Shown: positions 29,297 to 43,991 of the stretch, piece after piece
Layout of the letters: the number at the start of each line of letters is the position of its first letter
Numbering within the stretch: the first letter of the stretch is position 1
Assembly (NCBI GenBank): GCA_902464015.1
Contig: CABQHM010000010.1
Location: forward strand, 345 to 64,344
Direction: 5' to 3'
Length of the DNA stretch: 64,000 bases
From: an uncultured Coriobacteriales bacterium
Lineage (GTDB): Bacteria; Actinomycetota; Coriobacteriia; Coriobacteriales; UMGS124
Notes under the pieces: model-generated
The model's database searches: none
Told to the model about the DNA's origin: nothing
Seen by the model: only the letters and a program-made list of their open reading frames with translations
Made by a program: the position numbers and the translations under genes

Positions 29297-29785
29297 TTAT
29301 GCCTCGGGGGAAACGTCAGGCGCCTCCCCAGCCTTCGCGGCATCGGCCTCACAGCGGGCCAGCGTGTAGGCGTAGTCCTCGCGGAAGCGGTTGAGCTCGT
29401 CTTCCAAGACAAGGGCATCGGCCTCAGACAGACGCGCGCGCGATGCCTCGGGGACACTGGCGAAGGGGCTGTGCTCGAGGTCGCGCTCAAAGCGCGCCTT
29501 CTCACCACGCAGGGCCAGGCGCTTCTCGTTTACCAGCTGCTCATAGAGCTTGGGATCGATGGCGTCGCGGTCGAACGTGCGAGACTCGAGCTGTTCGAGG
29601 TCGCCCTCGAGGTCGTCGACGCATGAGTACTTGGCAAGCACCTGCCCTGCAGCGCGATGCCTCTCCAACTTGGCCTGAATCTCCTGCATGCGCGGCATGC
29701 CGGCAAGCAGCGACTGCAGATGCCGCTCGTTAGCCGATTCCGCCTGGTATGCACCCGTCAGCTGGTCATTTGTCTCGTTACCCAT
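29297..29785 (-). CDS. Hypothetical acidic helical protein (about 163 aa), no recognised domain
   Basis: ORF between the flavoreductase and LuxR genes on the same strand. Start at MGNETNDQ. Glu/Arg/Leu/Ala-rich, no hydrophobic segment. Confidence 0.5.
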   Translation of the reverse strand: MGNETNDQLTGAYQAESANERHLQSLLAGMPRMQEIQAKLERHRAAGQVLAKYSCVDDLEGDLEQLESRTFDRDAIDPKLYEQLVNEKRLALRGEKARFERDLEHSPFASVPEASRARLSEADALVLEDELNRFREDYAYTLARCEADAAKAGEAPDVSPEA

Positions 29786-29916
29786 CGCGTCGCCCTTTCC
29801 CTTCGAACCCCAAAACCCCACAGCCCGCAGCCCATCGGCACGCGGGGATACAGAAAAACCGGCCACCCCGCACACTGTGTGCGACGGGGCGGCCGGCCGG
29901 AACCCAAAACGCTGTC

Positions 29917-32109
29917 TTACTTCGAGATCTCCTGGCCGGAGAGCTCCTTGCCCAGGACGCGGCCCAGGGTGAGGGCCATGCCGAGGCTGACGCCCTGGAT
30001 GGGCGTGGAGTAGTGGGTGCCGAAGCGACCGCCGGAGTTGTTGCCGGAAGCGTAGAGGCCCTCGATCGGGTTGAAGTTCTTGTCAAGGACACGCTGGTTG
30101 GCATCGATGACCAGACCGTTGAGGCTGACGGTGCCCAGGGCGGGCTTCTCCTGCACCTGGATCATACCGAAGAACGGGGGCTCGTCGATGGGGAGCAGGA
30201 CGCGCGGGTCGCGGCCGAAGTCGGTGTCCTTGCCAGCAGCGGCCATCTCGTTGTAACGGTCGATGGAAGCCTTGGCGGCAGCGGCCTCCTCGTCGGAGAG
30301 GCCCATGTACTCGAAGAGCTCCTCCCAAGTGTTGGCCGCGAAGTGGCAGGGCGTACCCGTGGACCACGTGGTCTCGCCAGCGCCACCGGCGGTCTCCTCG
30401 CCCTCGGCGCCGCGCTCGACCCAGTGGGCCAGCGTCTCGTCGAGCGAGTCGTCGCGACCGGCGCAGAAGTGCTCGGGCGCGGAGCGGGAAAGCAGGGTCT
30501 TGTACTTGGAGTCGAAGAAGGCGTAGAAGCGGCCGAACTTCCTGCGCTCCATCTGCTCGATGATGCCGAAGCAGCCCATGAACTCCTCGTCGCAGAAGCG
30601 CTGCATGTCGGAGTCAAGCCACAGGGCGAAGCGGTAGGTGCCCTGACGGATGAGCAGGTTCACGGAGTACTTGTCGGAGATGTACACGACCTCGGGCGAG
30701 ATGAGGGTGCGCTGGATCGGGTCCATGGAGCCGCCGGCCCACATGCCCATCTTGATGCCCGAGCCGTCGCGGCCAAAGCCGGCGGTGCGCATCTTGGAGA
30801 TGTCCAGGCCGTGAGCGTCGAACAGCTCGCGCTGGTTCTGCTGGAGCTCCTTGTACATGGCGTTGTTCGCGCCGTAGTCGCCAGCAGACAGGACGATGCT
30901 CTCGCCGGTGAAGCGGTGGTAGTTGCCGTCGGCGTCCTGAGCGATGACACCGGTCACGCGGGTGTGGGTCTCGGTGCCGTCGGAGATGACATCGACGCCG
31001 TCCTCGCCCACCTGCTCGATCTTGCAGGGAACCTCTTCCTCGGTGGTCTCAAGCACGATGCCCTTGTAGCCCCAGAACCACTGGGCGCCCAGGGACTCGG
31101 ACTTGGCGATGAGGGCCTTGCCGCCGCTCTCCTGAGCCATGTCGCCAGCGCCTGCACCCTCGCCGAAGCTACCGGCGTTCATGGGGTAGGTGATGGTGCC
31201 CTTCCAGCACTTGTAGCCGTTGATGTCGCCGCCGTTGGCGAAGTACTCGTCAGCGCAACCCTCGACAAGCTCAATCTTCGTGGAGGCAACAACGGACTCG
31301 GGGGAGTTCTCCATGAGCCAGTCGACCATCTCGCCGGAGTTGTCGACGAACTTCTTCACCAGGCAGGGGTTGGTGTAGCCAAGGGAGCGGCGCTGCCAGT
31401 CGGCGATGAACTCGGACTTGTCGATCTCGGGGCAGCCGGCGTCCATGCAGAACTTGGAGTTGACGGTACCGATCTGGTGCAGACCGTACCAGAACATGTT
31501 GTCCTCGTCCTGAGCCTCGAGCACAACGACCTTCTTGCCGCCCTCGGCAGCAGTCACGGCGCAGGCCAGGCCCGCGTTGCCGCCGCCAACGATGACGATG
31601 TCAGCCTCGGTGGTGTCGACGATGTCTGCCTCGTCAATCTCGGGTTTGTCGCCGAGCCACTCGGGCGTGGCAACGACATAGGCGGCCTCGGCCGGGAACT
31701 CGTAACCAGCCTGCTCCATGCAGTCCTTCACACCGGCAACGGTGACGTTGGTGCACAGCGTGGCGCCGGAGATGGCGTCGACGTAGGGGCTGTTGGCCTC
31801 GACGATGCGGTTGCACAGGTCGTCGATGTCCTCACGGAAGTTCTCGGAGTAGTCCTTGCGGCTCGTCTGCGTGACAGTGTAGGTCACCGAGGTGATGGCG
31901 TCCTCGGACAGCTCGCAGGTAATGTCCATCTCGGCAAAGCCGGTGGACTGCTTCGACACGTAGGTGCCGGGCGTGAACGCGAAGGGAGCGAGGTCTGCGG
32001 GGGCATCCTCGGCCTGGGCGGTGCTCACGCCGGTGGCGGTGATGCCGAGAGCGGCGCCGGCAAGAGCGGCGGTCTTCAGGAAGTCGCTGCGGGTGATGCT
32101 GGTGGACAT
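29917..32109 (-). CDS. FAD-dependent reductase with N-terminal FMN_bind domain and atypical Tat-like signal
   Basis: MSTSITRSDFLKTAALAGAALGITATGVSTAQA (RS instead of RR). FMN_bind with DAISGATLCTNV. IVIVGGGNAGLACA. C-terminal GLYASGNNSGG. Confidence 0.9.
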   Translation of the reverse strand: MSTSITRSDFLKTAALAGAALGITATGVSTAQAEDAPADLAPFAFTPGTYVSKQSTGFAEMDITCELSEDAITSVTYTVTQTSRKDYSENFREDIDDLCNRIVEANSPYVDAISGATLCTNVTVAGVKDCMEQAGYEFPAEAAYVVATPEWLGDKPEIDEADIVDTTEADIVIVGGGNAGLACAVTAAEGGKKVVVLEAQDEDNMFWYGLHQIGTVNSKFCMDAGCPEIDKSEFIADWQRRSLGYTNPCLVKKFVDNSGEMVDWLMENSPESVVASTKIELVEGCADEYFANGGDINGYKCWKGTITYPMNAGSFGEGAGAGDMAQESGGKALIAKSESLGAQWFWGYKGIVLETTEEEVPCKIEQVGEDGVDVISDGTETHTRVTGVIAQDADGNYHRFTGESIVLSAGDYGANNAMYKELQQNQRELFDAHGLDISKMRTAGFGRDGSGIKMGMWAGGSMDPIQRTLISPEVVYISDKYSVNLLIRQGTYRFALWLDSDMQRFCDEEFMGCFGIIEQMERRKFGRFYAFFDSKYKTLLSRSAPEHFCAGRDDSLDETLAHWVERGAEGEETAGGAGETTWSTGTPCHFAANTWEELFEYMGLSDEEAAAAKASIDRYNEMAAAGKDTDFGRDPRVLLPIDEPPFFGMIQVQEKPALGTVSLNGLVIDANQRVLDKNFNPIEGLYASGNNSGGRFGTHYSTPIQGVSLGMALTLGRVLGKELSGQEISK

Positions 32110-32636
32110 ATGTTTCCTTTCCAACACGGTTGTTTCCGAACCTGCGGGCACGGCCTCCTTGCCGGCTCGCCTTCCGTTCGGGCTGACCCCATCGTGGCCT
32201 GCCAACGTCTTCTTCACCATGCCGCGACGGGTATGAAATTTGCCGCTCCCAGGCTCATACCCAAAGAATGAGAGGGGTCACCTTGACACGTTGAGCTGGG
32301 GAAATGCTGATTTGAGAGAATCCGCCCCCAAAAAACGGGACTGCTAAGAAATCTCTTGCACTCAGTGAAGCGATAGACGAGCGAGCCCTTGGACGTTGCG
32401 CGGGGAATACCTTGGGAGGTGCGAAAAGGGCGCGTCGCGAGCCACCGCTCTTCTCAAACAGCAAGAAGCCTCACAAGCACCCGGGGCACAGGCCTCCAGG
32501 ACGCACAGCTCTCACACCGTCGATGTGCTCCGTGTTTTCCTTGGTGGCCCCGCGCCCATCCTTCCCACAAACACGCCGGGACGTGGTAGCATCATCGCCG
32601 TCGTTGAAGGCTTGAGCATGAGAGGACAGACGCACT

Positions 32637-34259: not shown

Positions 34260-34381
34260 TGGTAGCAAGGCAAGCTGGGGGACCGCCTGCGCTGACGTAC
34301 TGGCAATCAAACGAGTTTCGGGACAGTTTTCCCAAACAGCCTGGCTCGAGTCTTACTACTCCCAAACTCAATTTCCTGCCA
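34260..34381. repeat. Compact copy of the 27-bp repeat family (two direct units at 41-bp spacing plus one inverted unit)
   Basis: tggcaatcaaacgagtttcgggacagt (34301-34327). Degenerate unit at 34260-34286. Inverted actactcccaaactcaatttcctgcca (34355-34381) matches 39864-39890 at about 22 of 27 positions. Confidence 0.65.
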
Positions 34382-34429
34382 GCAAGCCCAGTCGCAATGA
34401 AACGCCGCACCCGTCTCTTTTCGTCATTC

Positions 34430-36180: not shown

Positions 36181-36260
36181 CTAAACGCTCTCTAAACGCC
36201 ATCTCAACGTTTTGTCTGATTCAGTTTACACCACGCGATGCCTAAGGTTTTGCCTAAACG
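36181..36260. promoter_or_regulatory. 11-bp-phased CTAAACG(C) repeats in the divergent LuxR/flavoreductase intergenic region
   Basis: ctaaacgc at 36181 and 36192, ctcaacg at 36203 (exact 11-bp period), and a further ctaaacg at 36254. Confidence 0.4.
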
Positions 36261-36328
36261 ACAGGAGAAGGCTGGCAAGGGGCCAGCCGCACTGCCGTTA
36301 CGAGCCGTCCCGAAGAAAGGATGTTCTC

Positions 36329-38290
36329 ATGAGCAAGACCGTTTCGCGTCGCGCCTTCCTGACCAGCGCTGCAACGGCCACTGCGGGCATCGCCGCAGCA
36401 TCCGCCTTTGCAACCTCCGCCTTTGCTGCCGGTGGCCCCGGCGGTGGCCCTGGTGGCCCTGGCGGCCCCGCCAAGGAGGTTGTCTACGCTTCCGCTGAGA
36501 CCACCGACGACGGTCGCGTCAAGGGCTACTGCGGCCCTGGCGACTGGCTGGGCACCAAGCCCGAGATCGCCGAGGACCAGATCACCCAGACCTACGACGT
36601 CGACGTCGTCGTGCTGGGCGGCGGCCACGCCGGCCTCATGGCCACGCTGGGCGCCGTGGACGAGGGCTGCACCGTAGCCACCGTCGAGCAGCAGCCTTGG
36701 AGCGCCTTCGTTGACCTCGACGGCACCGGCGCTAACATGGGCGGCTGGTACGGCGAGGACATCGGCCATGTCAACTCGCAGTTCCTCATCGACCGCGGCT
36801 TTGGTCCCTACAACACCGGCGAGATTGCCGCCGAGTTCTGCAAGCGCGCCGCGGGCCGCGTGAACCCCGACATCATCAAGGCGTTCGTGCAGAATTCCGG
36901 CGCCATGTTCGACCGCTACAAGGAGGTCTACGACTCCTACGAGGAGGAGCGCAAGGCCAACGACTCCAACGTGCATCTCACCGGCACGCTCGTGGTGATT
37001 GACGGCGAGCCCGTGGCCGACGAGGGCGATTTCGACATGTCCAACATGTTCGATTACCCGCTGTGCAACACGCAGGCCGCATGGTCGGGCGCCAACGTGG
37101 AGTACCCCATCGAGTGCGGCGGCTACAAGACCTGGCCTTGCAACGCCCAGTTCTACGGCTACCACGGCAACGACATCGAGTTCGTGCACAAGTACATCAA
37201 GCAGTACACCGAGGAGAACGGCGCCACCTGGTACTTCGAGCACACCGGTGTCGAGCTCGTGCAGAACGAGGCCGGCGACGTGACGGGCCTTATCGCCACC
37301 GATGCCGACGGCAACTATGTGCAGTTCAACGCCGCCAAGGGCGTCATCCTGTGCGCCGGCGACTACATCGGCGACCCCAAGATGTGCTGGGCCCTGCTGA
37401 ACGAGGGCATGGAGTGGGGCGAGCGCTCCGGTGCCACCTCCGAGGACTGGGCGAGCGCCGGCTCGCGCTCCGGTGCCGGCCACAAGATGGGCATCTGGGC
37501 TGGCGGCATGATCGAGCCGACCCCCCGTGGCTGGATGGCCATCGGCGGCGGCGCAAGCGGCCCCTGGGGCACCTGCCCGCTGCTCACGCTCAACTCCGAG
37601 GGCAAGCGTTTCTGCAACGAGGGCGCCATCGCCCAGCTGCAGGCCGTCTGCCTGCGCCAGCCGGCCGGTCTGTCCTGCTACGTGACCGACGCCAACTGGA
37701 AGCAGACCGTGGGTTCGGCTCCCCTCGATCACGGCGCGCCCAACTTCGGCATGGACGACTACATGGTCCAGCTCGAGGCAGGCATGAACGCCGTTGAGGT
37801 GGGCAACCCCGAGGGCGGCTTCGTCGTCGGCGCCAACCTCGCCGAGCGCAAGATGATGGGCGGCACGGTGTACGCTGCCAACACGCTCGAGGAGCTGGCC
37901 GACATGCTCGGCTACGAAGGCGACGCCAAGCAGAACTTCCTCGACAGCATCGCCCATTACAATGAGCTGTGCGCCTCCGAGGACGGCGACACCGACTACG
38001 GCAAGGATAAGGCCTACATGGTGCCGATCGACACGCCTCCCTTCTACGGCGGCACGAGCAGCACCTCTCACTCCACCAGCCCCATGATGGTCACGATGAG
38101 CGGCCTTATGACCGACGCTGCCCAGAACGTCCTCAAGACCGACTGGACGAAGATTAAGGGCCTGTACGCCGCTGGCAACTGCCTGGGCGGCCGCTACGGC
38201 TTCGGCTACTCCACGCCCTTCGCCGGCAACTCGGTGGGCATGGCAATGACGCACGGCTGGCTCGCCGGTCACACCGTCGGCCAGCTGTAA
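36329..38290 (+). CDS. Tat-signal FAD-dependent reductase (FAD_binding_2 family) with Gly/Pro-rich linker
   Basis: MSKTVSRRAFLTSAATATAGIAAASAFATSAFA followed by AGGPGGGPGGPGGP. VVVLGGGHAGL. C-terminal GLYAAGNCLGG. GAAAGGA RBS. Confidence 0.9.
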   Translation: MSKTVSRRAFLTSAATATAGIAAASAFATSAFAAGGPGGGPGGPGGPAKEVVYASAETTDDGRVKGYCGPGDWLGTKPEIAEDQITQTYDVDVVVLGGGHAGLMATLGAVDEGCTVATVEQQPWSAFVDLDGTGANMGGWYGEDIGHVNSQFLIDRGFGPYNTGEIAAEFCKRAAGRVNPDIIKAFVQNSGAMFDRYKEVYDSYEEERKANDSNVHLTGTLVVIDGEPVADEGDFDMSNMFDYPLCNTQAAWSGANVEYPIECGGYKTWPCNAQFYGYHGNDIEFVHKYIKQYTEENGATWYFEHTGVELVQNEAGDVTGLIATDADGNYVQFNAAKGVILCAGDYIGDPKMCWALLNEGMEWGERSGATSEDWASAGSRSGAGHKMGIWAGGMIEPTPRGWMAIGGGASGPWGTCPLLTLNSEGKRFCNEGAIAQLQAVCLRQPAGLSCYVTDANWKQTVGSAPLDHGAPNFGMDDYMVQLEAGMNAVEVGNPEGGFVVGANLAERKMMGGTVYAANTLEELADMLGYEGDAKQNFLDSIAHYNELCASEDGDTDYGKDKAYMVPIDTPPFYGGTSSTSHSTSPMMVTMSGLMTDAAQNVLKTDWTKIKGLYAAGNCLGGRYGFGYSTPFAGNSVGMAMTHGWLAGHTVGQL

Positions 38291-38401: not shown

Positions 38402-39475
38402 ATGGATGCATGCATTGCACCTGCTACCGACAAACTTGTCGTCGACGTGGCGTTTCCCTTCACGCTGTCCACGCCCGCGTACGGTCCCAGTCGCCCGTTC
38501 ATGGGCAACCATGCCGCGAAGGCCGCCTATGTGGACGCGCTGGAGACCGAGCTCGCCTCCCTCGACGACGAAGTGCGGACGCGGCCTGTGTCTGCGGTAC
38601 GTCTCTCGGGCGGAGCAAGCATCATGAGCGCCGACAAGGTATGCCACCTGGTGCGACAGATTAAAAAAACGCTCACCATGGTACCGGGAGCGGAAATTTC
38701 CATCGACGTGGAGCCGCTGACCGTGTGTACGCCCAGCCTTACCGACTGGACGAGTTGCGGCATCACGCGCGTCAACCTTGCGGCCTTGTCCTGCGATGAC
38801 ACCGAACTTAGCGCACTTGGCGCTCACCACGCCCGCGAGCAGCTTCAAAATGCGCTGCTCTTCCTTGAAAAGTTTCACATGGCTAATGTGAACTTCGAGG
38901 TGCTATACGGCGCCCCGGGGCAGACAGAGGCGAGCTGGAAGCGCACGCTTCTCACCCTGGCTGGCGTCGACGCACCCCACATCAGCACGAGACCCCTGGT
39001 AGACGCCGCAAGCGACGCCGCCTGGACCGAGCAGGCCAGCGAGGCAAGCACGACGCAAGAGGGTGTCCCCGCTCCTGCCGCTCCCCTGCCCTCACCCGAA
39101 ACCCGACGTGTCTTCTATGAGCAGGCACAACGTATTCTCAGCGAGCGAGGCTATACCGAGGTTGCACCTGGCGACTTTGCCAAGTCGGGACTCGCTCCGG
39201 CATCGGGCGTGTTTGGGCCGCTCATGCGCGCAGGCGCCGACGTGCTTGGCTTGGGCGCAGGAGCCCGCAGCCGCCTTGACGGTTTCCTGTACGAAAACGC
39301 CTGCGACTACGACCTATATGTGGCCAAGTCCGCCGACTTCGAGGCGATTGTGCGCAACCCCCTGCGCGAGAACGAGCAATCTCTCCGCGCACGCGTCTGT
39401 CCGCCCGTCGAAAACCTCACCGCAGCCCAACGGTTTGAGTTCCTCGAAACCATGGGGGCATCGCTTGCGCGCTAA
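38402..39475 (+). CDS. HemN/HemW-like protein lacking the radical-SAM CxxxCxxC motif (paralog of 7673-8683)
   Basis: The cluster position reads VDVAFPFTLSTPAYG with no Cys. Family-like blocks VLYGAPGQTEASWKRTLLTLAGVDAPHIS and GYTEVAPGDFAKSG (HemN_C-like). Confidence 0.65.
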   Translation: MDACIAPATDKLVVDVAFPFTLSTPAYGPSRPFMGNHAAKAAYVDALETELASLDDEVRTRPVSAVRLSGGASIMSADKVCHLVRQIKKTLTMVPGAEISIDVEPLTVCTPSLTDWTSCGITRVNLAALSCDDTELSALGAHHAREQLQNALLFLEKFHMANVNFEVLYGAPGQTEASWKRTLLTLAGVDAPHISTRPLVDAASDAAWTEQASEASTTQEGVPAPAAPLPSPETRRVFYEQAQRILSERGYTEVAPGDFAKSGLAPASGVFGPLMRAGADVLGLGAGARSRLDGFLYENACDYDLYVAKSADFEAIVRNPLRENEQSLRARVCPPVENLTAAQRFEFLETMGASLAR

Positions 39476-39573
39476 ACAGCACGCCGCGCCCAACCATATC
39501 GCGTGGCCTCGGCGGCGAATGACGAATTGCGCCCGTCCTCTTGCGTCATCCCTTGAGTGCGCCGACTCATTAA

Positions 39574-39890
39574 TGGCAGCGAAACGAGTTTCGGTGCAGT
39601 GCGGGCGCCCCCGGTGGCAAACAAACAGGTTTCGGTGCAGTTTTGGCGGGTGCATTGGCAGCGAAACGGGTTTCGGTGCAGTCTATTCTCTGGCAATCCC
39701 GACGAACAACGAATTTTCCCGAATATTTCGTTGTAAAAACAACGAAAAGACTGATTTGACCTTACTGTTTTGATGCTCAGCCGGCTAAAAACAGGAAATC
39801 CGAACCTCAATCGTCTGCAATCACTGCACCGAAACTCGTTTGCTTGCCATTCGGGACCCCGGGACTACTCCGAAACTCGTTTCGCTGCCA
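39574..39890. repeat. Iteron-like array: three direct and two inverted 27-bp units at a 41-bp period flanking an AT-rich core
   Basis: Direct units start at 39574, 39615 and 39656 (tggcagcgaaacgagtttcggtgcagt and variants). Inverted units lie at 39823 and 39864. Each unit has an internal cgaaac-NN-gtttcg palindrome. The core at about 39690-39815 is visibly AT-rich and carries the hairpin ttcgttg-N6-caacgaa (39727-39746). Confidence 0.8.
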
Positions 39891-40064
39891 AGGGGTCGTC
39901 TTCTATACCCGGCGAATGGCACGTCGCTCCCATTCCTTTGTGTCATTGACCCGCTCGCAGCCATGGAGGCGTCACTAACGCGACAAACGACGCGCCGCAC
40001 CCACCTTCCGGCGCGACTCCCCAAGCAATATAGACACATTGCCCGTGCCTTATTACCCCCTGCG

Positions 40065-40475
40065 CTATTTTGCCTGCCTGCTCTCGAGGCTCTTTCGCTT
40101 GCCACATTCGGGGCAGCCGTAGCCTTGCAAGAGGCTCTTGGGGTAGGGCGACCAGGTATGGCCACACACGCGGCAGCGGCAATCAATGCGTGTGCGGGCG
40201 TTCACGTAGGGGGCGAGAAGCTCGACGTCAGGCGCGATGGATGCGGCCCGCGCGGCAAACGAGTCGGCCGTTACGCGCGCCGTGTCTGCGCATTCGGGAC
40301 ATCCCACACCTCGCAGCAGATGGTTTGGCACCGCATCCCACTCATGCCCACATGCGCGGCATCGGCAGGCAACCTTCGTGCGAGCGTTCACGTACTCCCC
40401 GAGCAGCTCGACGTCGGGCGCAACCTGGGCTAGCTCACAGGCGAACTCCTCAGGCGACTTGGCACGTGCAGACAT
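40065..40475 (-). CDS. Tandem zinc-ribbon protein (two CxxC...CxxC repeats), function unknown
   Basis: 136 aa. Internal duplication: PDVELLGEYVNARTKVACRCRACGHEWDAVPNHLLRGVGCPEC and PDVELLAPYVNARTRIDCRCRVCGHTWSPYPKSLLQGYGCPEC. Start taken at MSARAKSP. Confidence 0.55.
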   Translation of the reverse strand: MSARAKSPEEFACELAQVAPDVELLGEYVNARTKVACRCRACGHEWDAVPNHLLRGVGCPECADTARVTADSFAARAASIAPDVELLAPYVNARTRIDCRCRVCGHTWSPYPKSLLQGYGCPECGKRKSLESRQAK

Positions 40476-41089: not shown

Positions 41090-41971
41090 CTACTTATAAT
41101 CCCTGCGCAGGGACCTCATGTAGTCCATGAATTCGACCTCGGCCGGAGTGGACACATGATCGCGTCGATAGCATAGAGAAAAGCCCCATGGCAGAGCCCG
41201 CAGGGGCAAACCGACGGTCTTTTGCGATTCCGAGGTCGCTTCAACATGATTGCGACATGTAAGACCCAGGCCCATACCAGCGCGCGCACACTCATACACG
41301 CGCATCATTTCGCTTGTAAAACGAAACGTCGGCTTAACCCCGGCATCTGCGCAGAGTTTCATGAGATAGCCAGTATTGCGGTAATCGTCATTAACACTGT
41401 AGACCGTGCGTCCATCAAGATCGGCAAGCGTTACCTCACAAGCATCTGCCAGCTTATCGGCTCGATTTACCCAAACGAACTGGTAATCATTGACCAGGGG
41501 TATCGAGGCAAACGAAGGATCCGGAGGATTGACGAGCAACGCGTAGTCGCACTTTCCCTCAGCAAGGCACCGCTCGCACTCACTATCCGGCAACTCGTCA
41601 CTCACATATATCTGACAGTTCTGCGATTGGTTGAACGCATACAGTGCTCCTTCGCCCAGGTAGCCCAATACCCCCATCGAGCAACCCAGGCGAATGACAT
41701 TGGAGGCATGGGCATTGATAGCATCAAGCGCGCAGCGCATGCCCCTCTCTTCGTCCGCAATCGCCTGCCCATGCTCAAGAACGCACTTTCCCTGCTCCGT
41801 CAAATCAGAGGCCCCGAGCGCCCCTTCGTACATGGTGCAGGAAAGCTCTTCCTCCATGCGCCGCACGGCGCGCGCCAAGCCTTGCGGTGTAATACCAAGC
41901 TCTTTAGCTGCACGAGACACGCTGCGAAATCGCTCGATGCTCAGCAGGTATAGGTAGTTTTTCGTGTCCAT
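41090..41971 (-). CDS. LysR-family transcriptional regulator
   Basis: MDTKNYLYLLSIERFRSVSRAAKELGITPQGLARAVRRMEEELSCTMYE HTH. Divergent from the flavoreductase at 42294. Confidence 0.85.
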   Translation of the reverse strand: MDTKNYLYLLSIERFRSVSRAAKELGITPQGLARAVRRMEEELSCTMYEGALGASDLTEQGKCVLEHGQAIADEERGMRCALDAINAHASNVIRLGCSMGVLGYLGEGALYAFNQSQNCQIYVSDELPDSECERCLAEGKCDYALLVNPPDPSFASIPLVNDYQFVWVNRADKLADACEVTLADLDGRTVYSVNDDYRNTGYLMKLCADAGVKPTFRFTSEMMRVYECARAGMGLGLTCRNHVEATSESQKTVGLPLRALPWGFSLCYRRDHVSTPAEVEFMDYMRSLRRDYK

Positions 41972-42293
41972 GCTCCCCCAATCAACTCCCCACAACAGAC
42001 CAATCCGCGCACGAGCAAGGCAGTCGCTGACACATTATATGCGCAGCTCGGCTGCAATGCCTTCTGGGCAAAGACATGGCATCAGGCAAGGCAGCAACCA
42101 AACGGTTCAATTCGGAACCAGACTGTCCATCCGTTCAATATGAGCTTCTCTACCTGGAATTTTGTTAACACGTGCCTACCCGGTTCACATTGGAACCAAA
42201 ACGTTGGCTCCCATCTTCAAATCCCGGCCGTATCTTATGCGACGTCGACCGGGAAAGAGAAGTCCCGGGCAAAAACCACTGAGGAGGAAACAT

Positions 42294-43991
42294 ATGGCTC
42301 TTGAGATGACCAGGCGCAGTGCCATCGCCGCAACCGCAGCCGCAGCCGTGGCGGTCACCGCCACCCCCGCTCTCGCCGAGGAAGAGACGCAGGCTGCCGG
42401 TGGTTTTGTCACCGGCGAGGCCCTCGTCAGCAAGCAGGACTACTTCGGCTATACCTCCGAGGCCCCCTCGTTCATGACCGCCCCCGAGCCCGTGGCCGCC
42501 GATCAGATTGTCGCCACCCTCGACTGTGACGTCCTCGTCATCGGCGCAGGCCTTGCTGGCACCTCTGCCGCCCGTGCCGCCGCTGAGGGAGGCGCCAAGG
42601 TCATCTGCGTTGAAAAGATGCACCAGCCTTCTTGCCGTGGTGCCGGCGCTGGCACCATCAACTCCAAGCTGTCCTGCTCTTTTGAGGACGGTACCGTCAA
42701 AGACATCCCCGCAGCCGAGTTCCGCTGGATGCAGACCTGCGGCAACCGCCTGAACGAGGCTCTCGTTGCCAAGTACATGTACCGTTCCGGTGAGGCCGCC
42801 GACTGGCTGTGCGAGGCCGGCGAGAAGCACAAGTGCTTCATGGGAATCTGGGACGGCTACAGCCGTCATGAACTCCTGCCCGACGAGCCCGGTTACGTCT
42901 GTATGAGCGCCACCGACGACTCCGACATCAACCAGCCCTATGCCTCCTTCGTCGCCGCCGACGTCCAGTCCATCGAGGCAATGGCGGCAGGCGCCGAGTT
43001 CATGTTCGAGTGCCCCGCCCAGTATCTGCTCCAGGACGAATCTGGCGCAGTAACTGGTGCCATCGTCCTTGACGAAGAGGGCTACAAGCAAATCAACGCC
43101 CCGAAGGTCATCATGGCAACCGGTGACATCGGTGGCTCCGAAGAAATGATGCGTTACTACTGCCCCGAAGGCATCTCCATCCCCAGCGTGTACACCCCCG
43201 CCGGTGCCAACACCGGTGACGGCCACAAGATGATTCTGTGGGCCGGCGGTCACATGGGTCGCGCGCCCTTCGCAACCGCACTACACCCCCAGCGCTGGGC
43301 TGACCCGTTCTCCAACCAGCTCGAGGGCCCCTTCCTGTACGTCAACGAGAAGGGCGAGCGCTTCTTCAACGAGGGCACCTGGGTCCAGGCTCGCTCGCTG
43401 CAGATCATGCAGAACACGGCAGATGACTGCGCCTGGTCCATCTTCGACTCCAGCTGGCCCGAGGACCTCATGGCCTCCTTCCCCTACGGCGGCGGCATGT
43501 TCTGGGATATGTTCCGCTACAAGGGCGAGTCGGATTACCAGACCACGATTGACTACTACACGCAGTCGCTCGTCGATGCCGACGGTTCCACCTATGAGAC
43601 AGCCGACACACTCGAGGAGCTCGCCGAGAAGATCGGCGTTCCTGCCGACAAGCTCGTCGAGACCGTAAACCACTACAACGAGGTTTGCGCCTCTGGTGTC
43701 GACACCGACTTCTGCAAGCGCCCCGAGCTGCTCTTCCCCTGCGACACACCTCCGTACCACGCCTCCAAGGTGGGCGCGGTGCTTCTCGTAGTGTGCGGCG
43801 GCGCTGTCATCGACGCCAACTTCCAGTGCCTCGACGTCGACGGCAACCCCATCCCCGGCCTCTATGCCGTGGGCAACACCTCCGGCGGCACGGCCGAGGT
43901 CGACTACCCCATCAACGTGCCTGGCAACAGCCACGGCCAGGCCCTTACCCAGGGCTATCTCGCGGGCCGCATCTGCGCCGGCGTAGAGTAA
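42294..43991 (+). CDS. Tat-signal FAD-dependent reductase (FAD_binding_2 family)
   Basis: MALEMTRRSAIAATAAAAVAVTATPALA. VLVIGAGLAGTSAARAAAEGGAKV. C-terminal GLYAVGNTSGG. GAGGAGGA RBS. Confidence 0.9.
   Translation: MALEMTRRSAIAATAAAAVAVTATPALAEEETQAAGGFVTGEALVSKQDYFGYTSEAPSFMTAPEPVAADQIVATLDCDVLVIGAGLAGTSAARAAAEGGAKVICVEKMHQPSCRGAGAGTINSKLSCSFEDGTVKDIPAAEFRWMQTCGNRLNEALVAKYMYRSGEAADWLCEAGEKHKCFMGIWDGYSRHELLPDEPGYVCMSATDDSDINQPYASFVAADVQSIEAMAAGAEFMFECPAQYLLQDESGAVTGAIVLDEEGYKQINAPKVIMATGDIGGSEEMMRYYCPEGISIPSVYTPAGANTGDGHKMILWAGGHMGRAPFATALHPQRWADPFSNQLEGPFLYVNEKGERFFNEGTWVQARSLQIMQNTADDCAWSIFDSSWPEDLMASFPYGGGMFWDMFRYKGESDYQTTIDYYTQSLVDADGSTYETADTLEELAEKIGVPADKLVETVNHYNEVCASGVDTDFCKRPELLFPCDTPPYHASKVGAVLLVVCGGAVIDANFQCLDVDGNPIPGLYAVGNTSGGTAEVDYPINVPGNSHGQALTQGYLAGRICAGVE

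Follow-up and report, generated by a model that had tools for sequence, protein, structure and literature searches.

We analyzed a 64,000-nt stretch of contig CABQHM010000010.1 from an uncultured Coriobacteriales bacterium (hereafter, the window) and focused on a repeat array at positions 39574–39890. This array is one copy of an apparently undescribed family of ~275-bp intergenic elements found in a small group of human-gut Coriobacteriia. Our tentative reading, to which we assign a probability of about 0.45, is that these elements are intergenic mosaics resembling the bacterial interspersed mosaic elements (BIMEs) and repetitive extragenic palindromic (REP) sequences of enterobacteria. They would act as phased, looped protein-binding arrays and, secondarily, as recombination hotspots.

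The array consists of five 27-bp units, three forward and two inverted, repeated with a 41-bp period around an AT-rich core of 140 nt. Units were placed by sequence reading, repeat finding and a degenerate-pattern search. On the plus strand, unit 1 (outer left, TGGCAGCGAAACGAGTTTCGGTGCAGT) spans 39574–39600, unit 2 (TGGCAAACAAACAGGTTTCGGTGCAGT) 39615–39641 and unit 3 (inner left) 39656–39682. On the minus strand, unit 4 (inner right) spans 39823–39849 and lies 167 bp start-to-start from unit 3, and unit 5 (outer right, an AGTAGT variant) spans 39864–39890. Each repeat module is 41 nt long and combines a weakly conserved 14-nt spacer with a 27-nt unit. The core occupies 39683–39822 (plus strand); over two units (68 nt), the arms show 82% complementarity. 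The degenerate pattern TGGCANNNAAACNNGTTTCGGNNNAGT matched seven sites in the window, compared to 0.01 expected from shuffles, and an nhmmer profile built from ~400 family units returned the same seven sites and no others.

An original prediction for this region, made from its sequence, had described five units, and their positions, orientations and 41-bp period were borne out by repeat finding and the pattern search. It had also placed the motif CGAAAC-NN-GTTTCG in every unit; we observed that the motif is exact in three units and carries two mismatches in the other two. The core hairpin (TTTCGTTG-TAAAAA-CAACGAAA, 39726–39747) and the repeated caacgaa (39706 and 39740) were both seen. The GC content of the array region is 47.5–48.5%, compared to ~62% for the window, which is among the lowest values locally. 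The core had been thought to be the only strongly AT-rich stretch nearby; a second dip, to 49.5%, lies at 41300–41499. The compact relative proposed at a second position is real and consists of a plus-strand unit (34301–34327) and a minus-strand unit (34355–34381) with 27 nt between them.

We observed that the family is widely dispersed within a narrow group of hosts. One scan of 185,579 species-representative genomes yielded 58 loci, 55 of which came from a handful of human-gut Coriobacteriia metagenome-assembled genomes (MAGs), one being an Ellagibacter MAG. The remaining three were isolated chance hits in unrelated phyla. With the 69 loci from a metagenome scan, there are 127 unit clusters in total, which fall into ~49 flank-similarity groups, which we took as ~49 chromosomal sites. 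The original prediction had suggested a dispersed family and a genome-wide count of its consensus; the count gave 10–13 loci in each of four MAGs (HRGM_3264, UMGS124, CAKUAI and the CAVEWV bin), and the consensus recurs far beyond the two loci of the window. Scans of viral-contig, plasmid and phage collections gave no family match, and we found no description of the element in the literature on Eggerthella or Eggerthellaceae repeats or miniature inverted-repeat transposable elements (MITEs). Related loci were chosen for containing units, which under-samples empty sites. MAG contigs often break off inside repeats, and the family itself breaks short-read assemblies, with many copies at contig ends. 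The CAVEWV bin loci (L002, L008, L025, L026, L029, L030, L035, L045, L052 and L053) are labeled Acutalibacteraceae (Firmicutes); this label or the binning is doubtful, because the element contigs have 65.5% GC and have both an insertion sequence (IS) and the element family in common with the Coriobacteriia MAGs.

The design of the element was highly regular across the family. Each arm holds two to four direct units, most commonly as 2+2 (53 clusters), with 3+2 or 2+3 in 26 more. Same-arm neighbors are spaced at 41 bp in 221 of 236 cases. Inner units of opposite arms are 165–167 bp apart in 85 of 100 cases, giving a core of 139–140 nt. The unit consensus, TGGCAG-c-n-AAAC-G-a-GTTTCGG-[A/T]-G-[T/C]-AGT, is a 12+2+12 imperfect palindrome with a variable left half. 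Units begin 5'-TG and end CA-3' at their outer edges, and 60% of them carry GTAG on the 3' side. Positions left free in the search pattern were still 90–99% conserved; the 14-nt spacer was weakly conserved. Cores are directional, and those at different sites in one genome look unrelated outside a central palindrome. This palindrome, GTTG-N6-CAAC, is carried by all cores (10 bp, and up to 14 bp in some copies), and its arms co-vary (score of 0.19, unmatched in 500 shuffles, which gave 0.098). Shortened cores (27–129 nt) occur at several sites, including 34301–34381. The arrays do not resemble CRISPR loci: the spacers are 14 nt long and weakly conserved, the arrays have two to four units, and both orientations occur.

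We compared 12 pairs of elements, 11 of them orthologous between species. Units retained 94.4% identity, compared to 83.8% for flanks, 84.1% for cores and 74.7% for spacers. In one pair (L023 and L028), the whole element was ~99% identical and the flanks ~87%. Copies are retained at orthologous sites across species, and unit number differs by exact 41-bp insertions or deletions. At variable positions, units that would pair across the arms were no more alike (0.59–0.61) than non-partner units (0.60), and same-arm neighbors scored 0.66–0.69. The units are thus kept as sequence and the core for its length and one palindrome, which points to protein recognition with a fixed geometry rather than to RNA. 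Judging from these comparisons, the units are constrained as double-stranded sequence and not as structure. Among the options raised in the original prediction, a nucleoprotein assembly site fits best. The units behave like binding sites for a protein: they are better conserved than the sequence around them and show no sign of selection for arm pairing.

An element transcribed as a structured RNA (a stabilizer in the 3' untranslated region, a terminator, a small RNA or a long arm-to-arm hairpin) would account for the location at gene 3' ends and for the compensatory changes in the central hairpin. The window core also folds somewhat better than shuffles (z = −2.1, with single-stranded DNA folding rather than RNA parameters). 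However, we consider such an RNA very unlikely. Rfam searches of the window and 18 loci at curated thresholds, and of the element at E-values up to 5, gave no element match. Other predicted core helices were weak, so that a multi-helix fold of the core was rejected and the 10-bp central hairpin alone is supported. The long arm-to-arm hairpin was also rejected, because partner units do not co-vary. Core orientation is inconsistent with the direction of neighboring genes and can be reversed between orthologs. In many copies, the ‘loop’ itself continues the perfect central palindrome (e.g., GTTGTTTAAACAAC in L004 and L056), which an RNA hairpin does not need, and the stem is AT-rich and has no U-tract. 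A promoter and terminator scan of 39300–40200 found no promoter in the region and neither pattern within the element. One terminator-like site lies ~140 bp to the right of the element, no more than shuffles give.

Our favored reading, the BIME/REP-like protein-binding array, would work as follows. The conserved, asymmetric 27-bp units would be high-affinity sites for one sequence-specific DNA-binding protein. At 41 bp, or ~4 helical turns, the two to four sites of each arm would lie on one face of the DNA. The arms would face each other across a spacer of fixed length and free sequence (166 bp, or ~16 turns, between inner-unit centers), with an AT-rich palindrome placed off-center within it. 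Because the sites are phased, the arms face each other and the spacer length is fixed, proteins bound to the two arms could make contact with each other, forming a compact complex with the core looped out between them. Elements would persist at insertion-tolerant gene 3' ends, maintained by selection that might reflect a benefit to the cell, or by homogenization. Because all copies share the units, the elements may also be hotspots for recombination, cassette gain and loss, and IS insertion.

Several observations weigh against this reading. Concerted evolution through gene conversion could also yield high unit identity, and same-arm neighbors are indeed somewhat more alike. The persistence of shortened cores indicates that copies survive without the fixed geometry. 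The reading does not account for the spread of copies to ~49 sites, and the number of arrays per genome is far below that of classical REP families. We saw no RAYT-like gene in the sampled loci. Finally, the co-variation of the palindrome arms is not predicted for a simple dimer-binding site.

BIME/REP elements, including BIME-1/RIP with two inverted palindromic units flanking an IHF site, are the functionally closest known system. Both are extragenic and occur, for the most part, at the 3' ends of genes or where two genes converge. Both are built of imperfect-palindrome units in both orientations, arranged as a mosaic of variable unit number around a central motif, and in both orthologous sites are conserved and binding of a host protein is thought likely. 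Both also serve as targets of IS3-family IS (IS1397 in Escherichia coli; here, the IS in L064, L009 and L053). They differ in that the units here are conserved as sequence, with a left half-palindrome free to vary, and in that GTAG is 3' of the palindrome, whereas REP sequences carry GTAG or GTGG at the 5' foot; the units are therefore not REP sequences by that definition. The strict 41-bp/166-bp phasing, the fixed 139-nt core with a co-varying palindrome, the ~10–13 arrays per genome and the lack of an observed RAYT gene are further differences. In the sampled loci, no array pair encloses a small open reading frame (ORF) of the kind expected for a unit-flanked RAYT (Y1 transposase) gene. BOX elements of Streptococcus pneumoniae and NIME/dRS3 repeats of Neisseria are likewise modular intergenic repeats with variable module numbers, tied to variable regions and recombination. 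However, they (boxA-boxB(n)-boxC and dRS3-RS arrays, respectively) share no sequence similarity with the family, follow another module logic and lack its fixed-length variable core between inverted arrays.

We assessed the genes adjacent to the elements. Of 177 adjacent ORFs, 128 (72%) turn their 3' end to the element. The neighbors are mutually unrelated and include genes for mIHF, topoisomerase, DUF1846, reductases, LuxR regulators and AAA-ATPase_like/PDDEXK_9 proteins, as well as a gene judged asparaginase-like by eye from the sequence. Of all neighbors, flavoprotein reductases are the most frequent (46 loci), with ~4–5 in the 64-kb window. We judged this association to be background and rejected the reductases as a specific gene partner, because these genomes are rich in them. 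Numerous copies are situated between housekeeping genes and show no cassette variation.

An AT-rich segment between phased direct repeats of opposite orientation is also the layout of an iteron-type replication origin, which the original prediction had put forward, or of a plasmid or phage attachment relic. These data leave that idea with next to no chance. The ~10–13 copies per chromosome lie between unrelated genes, mostly at gene 3' ends, at chromosomal sites that are conserved between orthologs; the plasmid and phage collections held no match. No Rep, DnaA or integrase gene was found beside any sampled copy. Centromere and iteron arrays (the 43-bp repeats of F sopC, R1 parC and plasmid iterons) share the helically phased tandem repeats with a small palindrome and the assembly of a higher-order complex. 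Unlike those arrays, the elements are chromosomal and dispersed over many loci, have inverted arrays around a fixed spacer, and have no partition or replication genes nearby. A role as a replication origin is unlikely, as is active transposition.

To assess mobility, we searched for target-site duplications. An exhaustive offset and k-mer scan of 87 elements (offsets of 0–29 nt) found no 3–9-bp duplication; such a check had been proposed for the ends of the window array. Local alignment of 100-nt flanks from 44 elements (L001–L058 and the window) found no flanking repeat except one at the locus group of the window, which we call D3. An autonomous parent, with the same ends around a transposase, was absent from the 127 clusters in a search limited to loci matching the unit pattern. 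Two candidates were rejected. L020, whose arms are 1.67 kb apart, carries an IS256-family IS (~396–1890; 439-aa Transposase_mut) nested in its core with its own ends and a 9-bp duplication (CTTTCTGTT). L064 carries an IS3-family IS in a spacer, with its own ends and a 3-bp duplication. Among these loci, which were picked for units and are biased against empty sites, orthologous sites were nearly always occupied, and differences were cassette replacements or internal deletions.

These results bear on the view that the family is an old, now immobile MITE, whose arms would be subterminal transposase sites like those of Tn7, Mu, Tn402 or IS21, and which a now lost or rare transposase would once have mobilized in trans. 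The anatomy fits transposon ends (TnsB sites of Tn7, L1–L3/R1–R3 of Mu, Tn402, IS21 and derived MITEs) in several ways: the sites are long, direct within an arm and inverted between arms, the units have TG...CA outer dinucleotides, and the geometry suits a paired-end complex. Long asymmetric sites of 27 bp are typical of transposase end-binding. Intergenic dispersal to ~49 sites also requires some route of spread. Nevertheless, we regard a MITE origin as unlikely. In addition to the lack of target-site duplications and of matches in phage and plasmid collections, none of the 127 clusters contains an internal transposase gene or is a transposase- or Rep-bearing relative, the two transposases seen being those of the nested IS256 and IS3 elements. 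There are no young copies: cores of different sites have little in common beyond the central palindrome, and the only near-identical pair belongs to a segmental duplication of ≥1.38 kb. Arms differ in how many units they hold, which leaves the ‘ends’ without a fixed form, and sites are conserved across species. The suggestion of Tn7/Mu-like ends or of an active mobile element was not upheld.

The IS3-family IS (467-aa rve + HTH_21 transposase) was found within array spacers or directly next to them on at least three independent occasions (L064 5511–6994, L009 3778–3831 and L053 ~1194–1220), with further loci at L015 6821, L016 2194, L039 6426, L065, L080 and L094. Its ends are GGGACCCCGGAC...GTCCGGGGTCCC and its 3-bp duplication is GAC. 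The terminal repeat of the IS resembles the spacer motif, and the window spacer at 39850–39863 contains GGGACCCCGG. IS1397 targets BIMEs. By analogy, insertion of the IS3-family IS into spacers looks like targeted insertion.

We observed rearrangements that end at units. The window site has orthologs in L009 (96% identity), L096 and L046 for its left flank, its left D3 copy (D3-A) and all three units of its left arm. Homology with these three loci ends exactly at the 3' edge of unit 3 (39683), and the core of the relatives is of another subtype and in the opposite orientation. In UMGS124, and apparently also in L096, the window-site element (E1) and a second element (E2; L011, L047 and L085) flank extra DNA that is missing from the window; E2 adjoins a CapR-type gene. 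The extra DNA in CAKUFZ encodes a MerR regulator and a flavoprotein reductase with a twin-arginine translocation (TAT) signal, E1 is absent, and homology with the window breaks off inside D3-A. The window segment 39891–40071 has no counterpart in relatives. From 40072 onward, on the side of the zinc-ribbon/NDT gene pair, the window is syntenic with relatives at 85–93% identity. The proposal that this pair arrived with the element is not supported, because the variable DNA is on the element side and the gene-pair side is syntenic.

At the 34.3-kb site, the element is complete (2+2, with a 139-nt core and D3 on both sides) in L037, L123, L126 and L012, and shortened in the window and L046. A two-gene molybdopterin-oxidoreductase cassette lies beside the element in L012. 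At a further site, L073 has an element and a HipA-like cassette where L090 has just one degenerate unit. On contig CAVEWV010000028.1, a segmental duplication (L008 6620–8000 and L035 515–1895; ≥1.38 kb, 99.8% identity) that starts 18 nt outside an outer unit takes in an element and part of a reductase gene.

D3, a direct repeat of 29–37 nt (…GACGAATTGCGCCCGTCCCTTTGYGTCAT), had been overlooked in the original prediction. It lies 6 nt from the outer right unit and ~24–50 nt from the left arm. In the window, D3-A spans 39513–39549 (plus strand) and is followed by a 24-nt linker, D3-B spans 39910–39946 (plus strand), and a third copy (34390–34426, plus strand) lies beside the compact element, just past the stop codon of a LuxR gene. 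Further copies are in L037, L123, L126, L012, L046, L011, L047 and L085, and a variant form is in L093, L097, L100 and L109. D3 was rejected as a general component or target of the family, as it is confined to the locus group of the window and one other. In L037 (CAKUFZ), homology with the window breaks inside D3, which may be an end peculiar to one subfamily or a site of local recombination. The left half of D3-B resembles the D3 of the L046 element and its right half that of the L011 element. This is suggestive, though no more than that, of D3-B having arisen by recombination between the D3 copies on either side of the extra DNA in relatives.

These rearrangements could reflect synapsis or recombination sites of a trans-acting site-specific recombinase that moves cassettes, with the logic of integron attC or Acinetobacter pdif sites. 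Crossover would take place at the units (12+2+12) or at the central 10-6-10 palindrome, and the other sites would be accessory. At a site that holds one element in the window, a MerR and flavoprotein-reductase cassette appears to lie between two elements of the same contig and like strand, the E1 of L046 and the E2 of L011/L047/L085, with L046 and L011 being separate tiles of that contig. The L012 and L073/L090 cassettes, the duplication starting 18 nt outside a unit, the breakpoint at unit 3, the recombinant-like D3-B and hybrid palindrome arms (e.g., in L016) also fit. However, homologous recombination between repeats of 27–41 bp or longer explains every breakpoint equally well. No recombinase gene was associated with any sampled cassette or element, and D3 is limited to few loci. 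Free-standing central palindromes, which might serve as attB-like partners, were absent from the ~1 Mb sampled, and the copies between housekeeping genes show no cassette variation. We therefore consider recombinase sites quite unlikely.

A bolder form of this proposal is a long shot: the elements would be cis synapsis or crossover sites of a new ~275-bp type, at which a trans-acting recombinase of gut Eggerthellaceae exchanges recombinase-less cassettes in an integron- or pdif-like manner. If true, the cassettes moved would be flavoprotein and molybdopterin reductases with regulators, and toxin-antitoxin modules. Lambda-type attP shares the opposed arm arrays around a 10-6-10 palindrome within ~275 bp, and pdif modules and integron attC share the recombinase-less cassettes bounded by sites. 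Unlike these systems, the family has no integrase or attB-like partners that we could find, its breakpoints are at units and not at the central palindrome, and most copies are not beside variable cassettes.

Core orientation also differs between related elements. L069 (1461–1735) and L105 (934–1208) have flanks that are 95% identical and cores that are reverse complements of each other at 71% identity; either an old inversion or replacement from another copy would explain this difference. An invertible DNA switch, in which a recombinase acting on the inverted units flips the core, would predict such differences here and in the comparison of the window with L009/L046/L096. Known small invertible switches also include segments of about this size (139 bp between inverted repeats). 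However, no orthologous pair among those compared has similar cores in flipped orientation, and in both flipped cases the cores have diverged beyond the flanks (71% vs. 95%, or a different subtype). Because of this divergence, we read the flipped cores as replacement from another copy and not as switching. The core contains no promoter and the element is downstream of genes, and a switch seems extremely improbable. Homologous recombination is the simplest explanation of the core swaps, because like arms in inverted orientation let it copy a donor core in either orientation.

Two small replacements were seen within otherwise similar elements. In L023 compared to L028, the 14-nt left-arm spacer is wholly replaced inside a near-identical element. 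In L015 compared to L016, a replaced stretch of 30 nt ends at the left arm of the palindrome and leaves a mismatched hairpin in L016. Both patches look like short gene-conversion tracts.

The family is unusual among repeat families in that selection or homogenization acts on unit sequence and spacer length and not on spacer sequence. This constraint points to a defined three-dimensional protein–DNA complex that could be isolated. The element would also provide a ready, highly specific module for protein–DNA recognition in bacteria for which the genetic toolbox is small. In Eggerthellaceae, drugs, dietary polyphenols and host compounds are metabolized by large reductase sets that differ between strains. 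The gut Coriobacteria studied here have many paralogous flavoprotein reductase genes with adjacent regulators, and an ordered repeat element at the edges of reductase cassettes is a candidate handle on how such gene sets are reshuffled. Because unit number changes in 41-bp steps, the elements are also a possible strain-typing marker.

Within the window, the genes on either side of the array converge on it: the HemN-like gene has its end at 39475 and the CapR/zinc-ribbon gene, with the NDT gene behind it, at 40065. An exact-protein look-up of a neighboring gene gave only two matches, a locus whose 7,074 nt are all identical to the window and a short contig that breaks off in the left arm, past unit 2 and before unit 3. 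The window is crowded with paralogous FAD_binding_2 flavoprotein reductases and LuxR/LysR regulators (29749–32277, 36212–38290, 42162–43991 and ~60.6–61.5 kb). Several weak cross-matches between the window and other loci, e.g., at 16.2 kb, result from this dense reductase paralogy; a further repeat at 16.2 kb was rejected, as the similarity is coding and between paralogous reductases.

The flanks of the main subfamily (L004, L005, L027, L034, L044, L054, L056, L057, L018 and L020) are conserved well beyond the arrays. One flank holds a nested, GC-rich hairpin (~90 nt) that directly follows the stop codon of the upstream gene, and the opposite flank has >100 nt of conserved sequence (…GCGCCACCCGGCAAGGCGGGC…CCAGCATCGGGAGCGG…). 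These conserved flanks had no Rfam match. Both flanks surround one single unit at L018 7096. The sole Rfam match was a tRNA gene (L041 5025–5097) ~230 nt from an element, the only such case and unrelated to it. Genes for AAA-ATPase_like and PDDEXK_9 proteins lie tail-on, ~90–470 nt from elements, at ~3 independent sites (L005 861–2573, L054 1119–2729, L071 2023–3804, L091, L120 and L032). A rough estimate of 0.3 expected occurrences suggests that this proximity is above chance.

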